A stretch of 64,000 bases of DNA. Source: Escherichia coli (GTDB lineage Bacteria > Pseudomonadota > Gammaproteobacteria > Enterobacterales > Enterobacteriaceae). The notes under the pieces were generated by a model. That model saw only the letters and a list, made by a program, of their open reading frames with translations. It searched no databases and was not told the DNA's origin. Shown here in pieces: positions 43,128 to 44,087 of this stretch; within the stretch, counting starts at the first letter, position 1; each line of letters starts with the position of its first letter. Position numbers and translations under genes: made by a program. The stretch lies in assembly GCF_003334815.1 (NCBI RefSeq), contig NZ_QOWO01000012.1. One strand, written 5' to 3'.

Positions 43128-44087
43128 GTGGCACAACGAGATTATGTACGCCGCAGCCAACCGGCACCTTCGCGGCGAAAAAAGAGCACCTCACGGAAAA
43201 AGCAACGAAATCTGCCTGCGGTTTCTCCCGCTATGGTCGCTATTGCTGCCGCCGTTCTTGTGACCTTTATCGGTGGTCTGTACTTCATTACGCATCACAA
43301 GAAAGAAGAGTCCGAGACGCTGCAAAGCCAGAAAGTGACCGGAAACGGACTACCACCAAAACCAGAAGAACGCTGGCGCTACATTAAAGAGCTGGAAAGT
43401 CGCCAGCCGGGAGTGCGTGCGCCCACAGAACCTTCTGCCGGTGGTGAAGTGAAAACGCCGGAGCAACTGACACCAGAACAACGTCAGCTTCTTGAACAAA
43501 TGCAGGCTGATATGCGCCAGCAGCCAACGCAGCTGGTTGAAGTTCCGTGGAATGAACAGACGCCGGAACAGCGTCAGCAAACGCTACAGCGCCAACGTCA
43601 GGCGCAGCAATTAGCGGAACAGCAACGCCTGGCTCAGCAGTCGCGTACGACTGAACAAAGCTGGCAGCAGCAGACGCGTACGTCGCAAGCCGCACCGGTA
43701 CAGGCGCAACCGCGCCAGTCTAAACCGGCTTCTTCTCAGCAGCCGTACCAGGATCTGCTGCAAACTCCTGCGCACACGACTGCGCAGTCGAAGCCGCAGC
43801 AAGCTGCGCCAGTTGCTCGTGCCGCTGACGCGCCAAAACCGACGGCGGAGAAAAAAGACGAACGCCGCTGGATGGTGCAGTGCGGTTCGTTCAGAGGCGC
43901 GGAACAGGCAGAGACGGTACGTGCTCAGCTGGCGTTCGAAGGCTTTGACTCGAAAATCACCACCAACAATGGCTGGAATCGTGTGGTCATTGGCCCGGTG
44001 AAAGGCAAAGAGAACGCAGACAGCACCCTCAATCGGTTGAAGATGGCGGGTCATACAAACTGCATTCGGCTCGCCGCCGGGGGTTGA
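43128..44087 (+). CDS. ftsN: Cell division protein FtsN
   Basis: 319-aa ORF with GTG start; single TM helix, Gln/Pro-rich linker, C-terminal SPOR domain. Confidence 0.93.
   Translation: MAQRDYVRRSQPAPSRRKKSTSRKKQRNLPAVSPAMVAIAAAVLVTFIGGLYFITHHKKEESETLQSQKVTGNGLPPKPEERWRYIKELESRQPGVRAPTEPSAGGEVKTPEQLTPEQRQLLEQMQADMRQQPTQLVEVPWNEQTPEQRQQTLQRQRQAQQLAEQQRLAQQSRTTEQSWQQQTRTSQAAPVQAQPRQSKPASSQQPYQDLLQTPAHTTAQSKPQQAAPVARAADAPKPTAEKKDERRWMVQCGSFRGAEQAETVRAQLAFEGFDSKITTNNGWNRVVIGPVKGKENADSTLNRLKMAGHTNCIRLAAGG

Follow-up and report, generated by a model that had tools for sequence, protein, structure and literature searches.

Rare in-frame length alleles bounded by short direct repeats in the Q-rich linker region of Escherichia coli ftsN

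Introduction

Does the glutamine-rich tract of ftsN differ in length among strains of Escherichia coli, and if it does, where do the changes fall and how might they arise? The question was raised by an earlier note on a 64,000-nucleotide stretch of E. coli DNA (contig NZ_QOWO01000012.1; this whole stretch is referred to as the window), which pointed to the interval 43400–43800 within ftsN. This interval corresponds to codons ~91–225, which take in the last part of the essential domain together with helix H3 and the Q-rich linker.

The published map of FtsN consists of a cytoplasmic tail (residues 1–33), a transmembrane helix (34–53), H1 (62–67), H2 (80–93), the essential domain EFtsN (75–93), H3 (117–123) and the SPOR domain (243–319), and residues 129–225 are termed the "unstructured Q-rich linker" (PMC7939390; Fig. 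1 legend for the linker). According to two reports, the essential part of FtsN is the EFtsN peptide only (PMC7939390; bioRxiv 10.1101/2020.06.05.136150). The linker has been described as a long flexible tether, ~70 nm when extended, which lets the SPOR domain probe for denuded glycans (bioRxiv 10.1101/2024.05.13.594014). According to PMC7642682, DamX, DedD and RlpA share the FtsN architecture of a membrane anchor, a disordered linker and, at the C-terminal end, a SPOR domain. Of these proteins, FtsN alone is known to carry, upstream of its linker, the essential E domain.

Results

Identity and domain layout of ftsN

The ORF at 43128–44087 is FtsN of the gammaproteobacterial type, as the equivalog profiles, the SPOR domain, the EFtsN region and the gene order all agree. 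The NCBIfam profile search matched the FtsN equivalog NF008179 at 707 bits (cut-off 525) over residues 1–319 and TIGR02223 at 390 bits (cut-off 107.65). The 960 bp of the gene were 100% identical to those of K-12 MG1655, BW2952 and numerous further E. coli genomes, in which they are annotated as ftsN, and the order cytR (42005–43036), ftsN, hslV (44180–44710) agreed with the matching RefSeq loci, which show the enterobacterial arrangement cytR-ftsN-hslVU. A hydrophobic stretch at residues 34–53 could be seen in the translation. The solved SPOR structure of FtsN (PDB 1UTA) aligned to residues 242–319 with an E-value of 8.9e-48, while the PDB search returned no solved structure spanning residues 94–241. 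The sequence was identical to the Q-rich linker 129–225 of E. coli FtsN (P29131), the domain limits of PMC7939390 fitted the tract, and the window differed from this known system in nothing. On the profile match, the K-12 identity and these limits, the earlier assignment of the tract to ftsN and to its linker was correct. The layout was as follows.

43128–44087, plus strand: ftsN coding sequence, 319 aa and a stop codon, starting with GTG (ORF list, NCBIfam, K-12 identity)
43350–43406, plus strand: essential domain EFtsN around helix H2, residues 75–93 (limits from PMC7939390)
43464–43556, plus strand: conserved H3 module, residues 113–143 (LTPEQRQLLEQMQADMRQQPTQLVEVPWN; alignment A2), holding the first TPEQRQ motif of the earlier note
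43512–43802, plus strand: Q-rich linker, residues 129–225 (PMC7939390), 31% Gln, unalignable between genera and length-variable
43854–44084, plus strand: SPOR domain, residues 243–319 (1UTA match; PF05036 recorded on homologues)

Conservation along the protein was assessed in alignment A2, which comprised 30 homologues, some of them only 33–50% identical. Residues P76, P79, W83, Y85, L89 and E90 of EFtsN were invariant, distant homologues included. In the H3 module, L114 and L122 were invariant and E117, Q118, Q124 and D128 were at least 90% conserved. From residue ~146 to 240, gaps appeared, conservation was lost and lengths diverged between homologues; the phmmer matches to distant homologues accordingly fell into two parts, an N-terminal stretch up to about residue 145–150 and a SPOR stretch. 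Between genera, the linker alone differed in length (phmmer, A2). Judged by its Gln bias and its lack of intergeneric conservation, the tract has the character expected of a disordered Q-rich linker, except for the conserved residues 113–143. The earlier description of the tract as low-complexity therefore holds for the linker and not for the first third of the tract, where these residues are conserved in homologues of 33–50% identity.

Composition and direct repeats of the tract

The tract had been called Gln/Arg-rich and CAG/CGT-rich. Gln made up 27% of residues 91–225 and 31% of residues 111–225, in line with the first half of that statement, but Arg was not enriched, at 8.1% compared with 8.8% in the whole protein. 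Likewise, CAG was abundant (25 of 135 codons, with CAA at 12 of 135) but CGT was not (6 of 135). The quoted peptide motifs are present in FtsN, with TPEQ at residues 110, 115 and 145. The T content of the tract was 13.7%, and the AT skew was positive, 0.30–0.48, in scanning intervals starting at 43350–43650.

Tandem Repeats Finder (43000–44200, minimum score 30) returned 0 rows, so that the K-12-type ftsN holds no tandem array by this search. Instead of the proposed quasi-repeat, a repeat search of the tract revealed dispersed direct repeats of 7–24 nt, every one spaced in frame. The repeats needed below were these.

43465–43488 and 43555–43578, plus strand: D1, 24 nt, 20/24 identical, exact core CGTCAGC (7 nt), spacing 90 nt or 30 codons
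43635–43649 and 43668–43682, plus strand: D5, 14/15 identical, spacing 33 nt or 11 codons, unit RTTEQSWQQQT
43518–43530 and 43665–43677, plus strand: D7, 13 nt, exact core CAGCAGC (7 nt), spacing 147 nt
43599–43745, plus strand: the repeat pairs CAGGCGCA (43599, 43701) and CTCAGCAG (43633, 43735), spacing 102 nt each
A further direct repeat, D2: 12 nt, spacing 102 nt

The tract contained 17 exact in-frame repeats that were 7 nt or longer, compared with 15.1±4.2 expected when the codon order was shuffled (P=0.34). The same count was 5 and 9 in pieces of equal length from cytR and hslU, so the ftsN tract was 2–3 times higher. The best repeat, D1, was marginal against the codon-shuffled tract (P=0.07). 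What had been taken for a quasi-repeat thus results from the low diversity of codons and is not a structured repeat, and there was no sign that the repeats are kept for a purpose, because their count is no higher than the codon composition predicts. The TPEQRQ pair was also considered as an ancient internal duplication; this is not claimed, given the same marginal shuffle test (P=0.07) and a second copy (TPEQRQQTLQ...) that was limited in A2 to Escherichia, Salmonella, Citrobacter and genera close to them.

Catalogue of natural length alleles

Alignment of ftsN across strains, the check proposed in the earlier note, revealed at least 12 in-frame length alleles, and strict length conservation was not seen. 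The E. coli-type in-frame alleles were −11, −18, −25, −27, −30, two different −34, −38, −49, +11, +22 and +30 aa. The protein search yielded FtsN of 349, 341, 301, 294, 292, 289, 285 (two kinds), 281 and 270 aa in E. coli and Shigella assemblies, while forms of 308, 330 and 294 aa occur in complete genomes. Forms of 308 and 322 aa were added by sampling the main 90% cluster, and the 322-aa form ("unclassified Escherichia") has +3 aa at residue 196. Most length alleles were singletons in draft assemblies, among them +30 in GCA_013526935, −30 in GCA_013085425, −49 in GCA_011872865 and +22 in GCA_048120865. The −25 allele was found on 18 contigs, and the −38 allele on 18 + 6 contigs with two SNP backgrounds.

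In alignment A1, a single gap within residues ~114–226 separated each E. coli-type length allele from the 319-aa form, residues 36–113 were unchanged in all of these alleles, and the SPOR domain was free of gaps in every length allele. Every E. coli-type indel allele found mapped to residues ~121–224 (window ~43488–43799), and none to any other part of the gene. When eleven alleles were compared with a wild-type allele at the DNA level, each had one gap, a multiple of 3 nt. All breakpoints could be placed in one interval.

43482–43813, plus strand: indel-prone interval, within which the breakpoints of all natural length alleles found are located

Several alleles could be assigned to the repeats listed above. 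D1 bounds the −30 aa alleles (P0009/P0011/P0016; the DNA was checked for L005, which is P0009), and the +30 aa allele of Shigella flexneri (L004) duplicates exactly the D1-bounded 90 nt that these alleles have lost. At D5, the 33-nt unit occurs in 0, 1, 2 or 3 copies, corresponding to FtsN of 308, 319, 330 and 341 aa; the −11 allele (L003/L020/L022) has lost one unit, and the +11 (L021) and +22 (L006) alleles have gained one and two. D7 bounds the −49 aa allele (L007). Of the two different −34 aa alleles, L011 is bounded by the CAGGCGCA pair and L010 by the CTCAGCAG pair.

Frequency of the length alleles in complete genomes

The census set consisted of 5,426 complete E. coli genomes, and draft assemblies contributed further alleles. 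An ftsN of exactly 960 bp was present in ~99.2% of the complete genomes, and in 20 of the 5,426 (0.37%) the E. coli-type linker had gained or lost sequence in frame. These 20 comprised three alleles: 927 bp (−11 aa) in 15 genomes from several countries and hosts; 885 bp (−25 aa) in 4 genomes of the EPEC E2348/69 lineage, namely the reference strain together with records derived from it or sequenced anew; and 993 bp (+11 aa) in one genome, APEC E18005. A divergent 948-bp ftsN allele was carried by 19 of the 5,426 genomes, and in A1 this divergent class holds 1–3 copies of an 8-aa unit. A 20-nt frameshifting deletion occurred in 2 related strains, where RefSeq flags the gene as a pseudogene.

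These counts were obtained from coverage flags, which detect indels of ~13 aa or more, and were resolved exactly by listing the carriers; shorter indels were sought by sampling and by ranking with a shorter divergent query, which puts short alleles first. Coverage of 43470–43660 was below 80% in 23 of the 5,426 genomes, comprising the 19 with the divergent allele and the 4 with −25 of the E2348/69 lineage. With the query 43620–43810, 19 genomes had no match and 15 had partial cover, the latter being the −11 genomes. In spread samples, all 59 E. coli-type alleles listed for the full-length query were exactly 960 bp, and all 59 listed for each of two 191-nt sub-queries were at wild-type length (177/177 over the three samples). 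A search with concatenated junctions (E≤1e-20) found at least 16 carriers, which is a lower bound because it missed 4 of the 15 genomes with −11.

The earlier statement that such tracts are prone to length polymorphism was therefore borne out, with alleles from −49 to +30 aa that all lie in the tract, although the variants are rare (0.37%). Any proneness would rest on standing variation that is very rare among complete genomes.

Microhomology at the junctions

Each deletion allele was compared with the closest of seven wild-type backgrounds, and an exact direct repeat was found at 9 of 9 deletion junctions (8, 8, 7, 7, 8, 8, 8, 4 and 5 nt, in the order below).

−25 aa: junction repeat GCGCCAGC
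−11 aa: junction repeat CGCGTACG
−30 aa: junction repeat CGTCAGC
−49 aa: junction repeat CAGCAGC
−38 aa: junction repeat GCGCCGGT
−34 aa (first): junction repeat CTCAGCAG
−34 aa (second): junction repeat CAGGCGCA
−18 aa: junction repeat CAGC
−27 aa: junction repeat AGCAG

The summed microhomology was 63 nt, compared with 11.9±5.3 nt under a null of deletions of equal lengths placed at random in the linker, and this value was reached in 0 of 200,000 simulations. Three deletions had appeared to have blunt junctions, with 1–2 nt of microhomology, when compared with K-12; this reading was rejected, as K-12 was the wrong background and the closest wild-type gives 5–8 nt. Two duplications reiterated exactly the repeat-bounded units. 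In the E. coli deletion literature, repeat-bounded junctions of this kind are the classical mark left by slipped-strand mispairing or by recombination over short homology.

The −11 aa allele was found on three SNP backgrounds, 12–19 SNPs apart, that retain different repeat arms (QQSRTS and QQTRTS). Because the backgrounds differ and there are two crossover positions, the allele must have had more than one origin, and two or three at the least. On the sequence evidence, the ftsN tract would thus be a hotspot of repeat-mediated indels.

Deletions that enter the H3 module

The natural alleles −30, −25 (E2348/69), −18 and −49 each take out part of the conserved H3 module. The loss of these conserved residues in natural alleles was one mildly unexpected point. 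A linker that only has to span a distance does not account for these deletions, because residues 113–143 are conserved across distant homologues, and the four deletions may be non-neutral.

Antisense ORFs

The two antisense ORFs of the earlier note exist at exactly the coordinates given there, and there is a third.

43384–43695, minus strand: antisense ORF, 103 aa (ORF list), spurious
43611–44108, minus strand: antisense ORF, 165 aa (ORF list), spurious
43350–43580: third antisense ORF (ORF list)

It is well known that coding DNA poor in T gives rise to long antisense ORFs as an artefact, and those of ftsN are compositional artefacts as well. Antisense stops, read as TTA, CTA and TCA on the plus strand, are scarce because the tract is T-poor (13.7% T, AT skew up to +0.48). 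The longest antisense stop-free run in ftsN was 158 aa, compared with 154±32 aa in synonymous-codon shuffles, of which 43% reached 158 aa or more. Among six further wild-type alleles of E. coli ftsN, five had this run broken to 112 aa. The shuffles and this breakage uphold the earlier reading of the ORFs as spurious. That either of the two ORFs is a real overlapping gene is extremely improbable: their lengths of 103 and 165 aa are considerable, but the longest run is what the shuffles predict and is interrupted in most of the other alleles, the promoter scan revealed no sigma-70-like promoter for them, and RefSeq annotates ftsN alone beneath the match. Minus-strand terminator-like matches inside ftsN numbered 5, compared with 2.4±1.5 in shuffles, about as expected. 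The Rfam scan of 42000–45000 found no credible RNA family in the tract; a match to mir-1205 was dismissed as chance (E=0.35; 20.7 bits, gathering score 75), and the Rfam element ClpQY_promoter is located downstream of the tract.

Discussion

We consider it highly probable that the length alleles reflect repeat slippage in an indel-tolerant Q-rich tether, which leaves rare length alleles in the population. The tract encodes H3, as the C-terminal part of the membrane-proximal region of FtsN, and the disordered Gln-rich tether that joins EFtsN (75–93) to the SPOR domain (243–319), which binds septal peptidoglycan. The tether draws on few codon types (CAG, CAA, CGN, ACG and CCG), which makes its DNA poor in T; from this follow both the few antisense stops, with long meaningless antisense ORFs, and a dense set of short in-frame direct repeats (7–9 nt). 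During replication, such repeats may mispair through strand slippage or recombine over their short homology, and the DNA between two repeat arms would occasionally be deleted or duplicated. In-frame events in the linker would survive as rare natural length alleles because the linker only has to span distance, while equivalent events elsewhere in the gene, or out of frame, would hardly ever be observed. We infer this tolerance because only EFtsN is essential and the linker is a long flexible tether. The slippage mechanism is likely, the alleles would be nearly neutral, and the tether role is taken from the literature.

Other readings of the length variants can be weighed against the same evidence. 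The variants could be assembly or sequencing artefacts, in which repeats have collapsed or expanded and the true length of ftsN is invariant. Many alleles do lie on just one or two draft contigs, P0043 shows a local frameshift that is then restored, two records carry the 20-nt frameshift, and such assembly errors occur. However, the repeats are at most 24 nt, under the k-mer sizes of assemblers, so that collapse is not expected; the −25 allele recurs in four separately deposited complete genomes of the E2348/69 lineage and on 18 contigs, the −11 allele in 15 complete genomes of varied origin, and the −38 allele on 18 + 6 contigs with two SNP backgrounds. Moreover, the indels examined at the DNA level are all multiples of 3, save the HBUT-L frameshift and the compensated frameshift presumed for P0043. 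Artefact is thus a very unlikely explanation. A contingency (VNTR-like) locus, in which frequent changes of length would tune FtsN function, is suggested by the series of 0, 1, 2 and 3 copies of the 33-nt unit and by the divergent allele class with its 1–3 copies of an 8-aa unit. Against this, the K-12 allele is without a tandem array, a single length occurs in ~99.2% of genomes, the repeat density equals the expectation from composition, and clonal groups such as the E2348/69 genomes hold one length, which makes frequent switching highly improbable.

It is also conceivable, though unlikely, that the indel alleles are adaptive, with lineages such as EPEC E2348/69 and O113:H21 STEC selecting shorter or longer tethers or partial loss of the H3 module, as opposed to neutral drift of slippage products. 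At least 9 of the 15 genomes with −11 have one junction haplotype, as shown by identical junction matches, the −25 and −38 alleles each occur on 18 contigs, and several alleles lose conserved H3 residues. Yet every allele stands at or below about 0.3% of genomes, the spread is consistent with clonal hitch-hiking, and the mutational signature by itself accounts for the positions of the alleles. Repeat-mediated indels in a tolerant tether therefore remain the preferred reading.

Among known systems, the lacI deletion spectrum in E. coli is a classical case of slippage or RecA-independent recombination between short direct repeats. The ftsN alleles resemble deletions and duplications of this type, as their endpoints lie in exact repeats of 4–8 nt of which one copy is kept. 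Reciprocal events at one repeat pair (−30 and +30 at D1; −11, +11 and +22 at D5) and recurrence on different backgrounds, seen for −11 and also for −38, are likewise features of short-repeat recombination. Unlike the selected laboratory mutants of lacI, the ftsN events represent standing natural variation in an essential gene. The ftsN length changes come in whole repeat units (33 nt, 0–3 copies), as at contingency loci and VNTRs; in contrast to these, the common ftsN allele is without a tandem array, length variants are very rare and no sign of switching was seen. The Q-rich linker of FtsN and its tether role were already known, and no description of natural ftsN length alleles or repeat-bounded junctions turned up in the set of papers searched; the allele series with such junctions is thus a modest new detail. 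The ftsN junctions offer a clear case, taken from nature, in which repeat-mediated indels have passed a filter of reading frame and of tolerance by the domain.

Since the length of ftsN is nearly fixed at 960 bp in E. coli, deviations are easily flagged. The rare alleles form a ready natural series of in-frame linker and H3 variants, one of them in the standard EPEC strain E2348/69, which could be used to test the effects of tether length and H3 on the partition of FtsN between synthesis and denuded-glycan tracks. A more far-reaching and unlikely possibility is that these alleles amount to a series of FtsN deletions that arose without design in fit wild strains, revealing either that the H3 module is dispensable or that the module or the tether length tunes division. 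If the lineages with −25, −30, −18 and −49 divide normally without compensation, the H3 module would be dispensable. If compensating changes or altered septation are found, the module or the length of the E–SPOR tether would tune how septal peptidoglycan synthesis is coupled to its degradation, and the alleles would be adaptive and not neutral slippage products.

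Divergent 948-bp allele of ftsN

A 948-bp ftsN allele encoding 315 aa was present in 19 of the 5,426 complete E. coli genomes, and one representative (L001) was fetched at the DNA level.

L001 (NZ_CP027579.1), 301–1248: divergent ftsN allele, corresponding to window ~43380–44087

The central linker of this allele (gene nt ~459–650) could not be aligned to that of K-12, and its 3′ part showed just ~89% identity to K-12. The flanking 300-nt stretches in cytR and hslV matched K-12 at 299/300 positions. The 948-bp allele appears to have been imported by recombination from a different Escherichia lineage. 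Two mosaic proteins from public assemblies (P0010 and P0014) combined the centre of the divergent allele with E. coli-type ends, and the divergent class carried its own 8-aa unit, QAAQQRQI, in 1–3 copies (proteins P0033, P0010, and P0034).

Frame-shifted, truncated and additional ftsN records

A 20-nt linker deletion (window 43690–43709) with 4-nt microhomology was found in strains HBUT-L (L023; NZ_CP104442.1) and hubt-sl. The deletion causes a frameshift, so that FtsN stops after approximately residue 190 and is devoid of the SPOR domain; RefSeq labels the gene as 'frameshifted'. These records represent either a viable strain with a SPOR-less FtsN or a sequencing error common to both. In the protein P0043 (282 aa, from a 4.85-Mb contig), approximately 22 residues (SSRTRSAANPCAHDRAVEA) are read in another frame before the FtsN frame is restored. 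The out-of-frame stretch corresponds to window ~43730–43800, inside the linker tract, and is explained either by a compensated double frameshift or by two sequencing errors within the tract.

In some records (P0273 and P0276; 284 aa), FtsN begins at Met36 (window 43233) and not at the GTG at 43128, an annotation difference which imitates a length variant in protein databases. The search of complete E. coli genomes returned 5,427 ftsN matches, two of them on plasmid-labelled records, and one genome contained two copies; the replicons could be mislabelled or the segment duplicated.

Features downstream of and within ftsN

The hairpin of the hslVU leader was located immediately 3′ of ftsN.

44125–44182, + strand: ClpQY_promoter element (hslVU leader hairpin; Rfam RF02401, bit score 63.6, gathering cut-off 42)

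This hairpin/promoter feature beside ftsN is already known. A sigma-32-like motif, TTGAAA ... CCCCATCTA (window 44080–44120), overlaps the ftsN stop codon.

No assigned function was found for the H3 module (LTPEQRQLLEQMQADMRQQPTQLVEVPWN; window 43464–43556, residues 113–143) in the FtsN literature consulted on it. The module was conserved even among homologues at 33–50% identity, and parts of it are deleted in natural alleles, including that of EPEC E2348/69.
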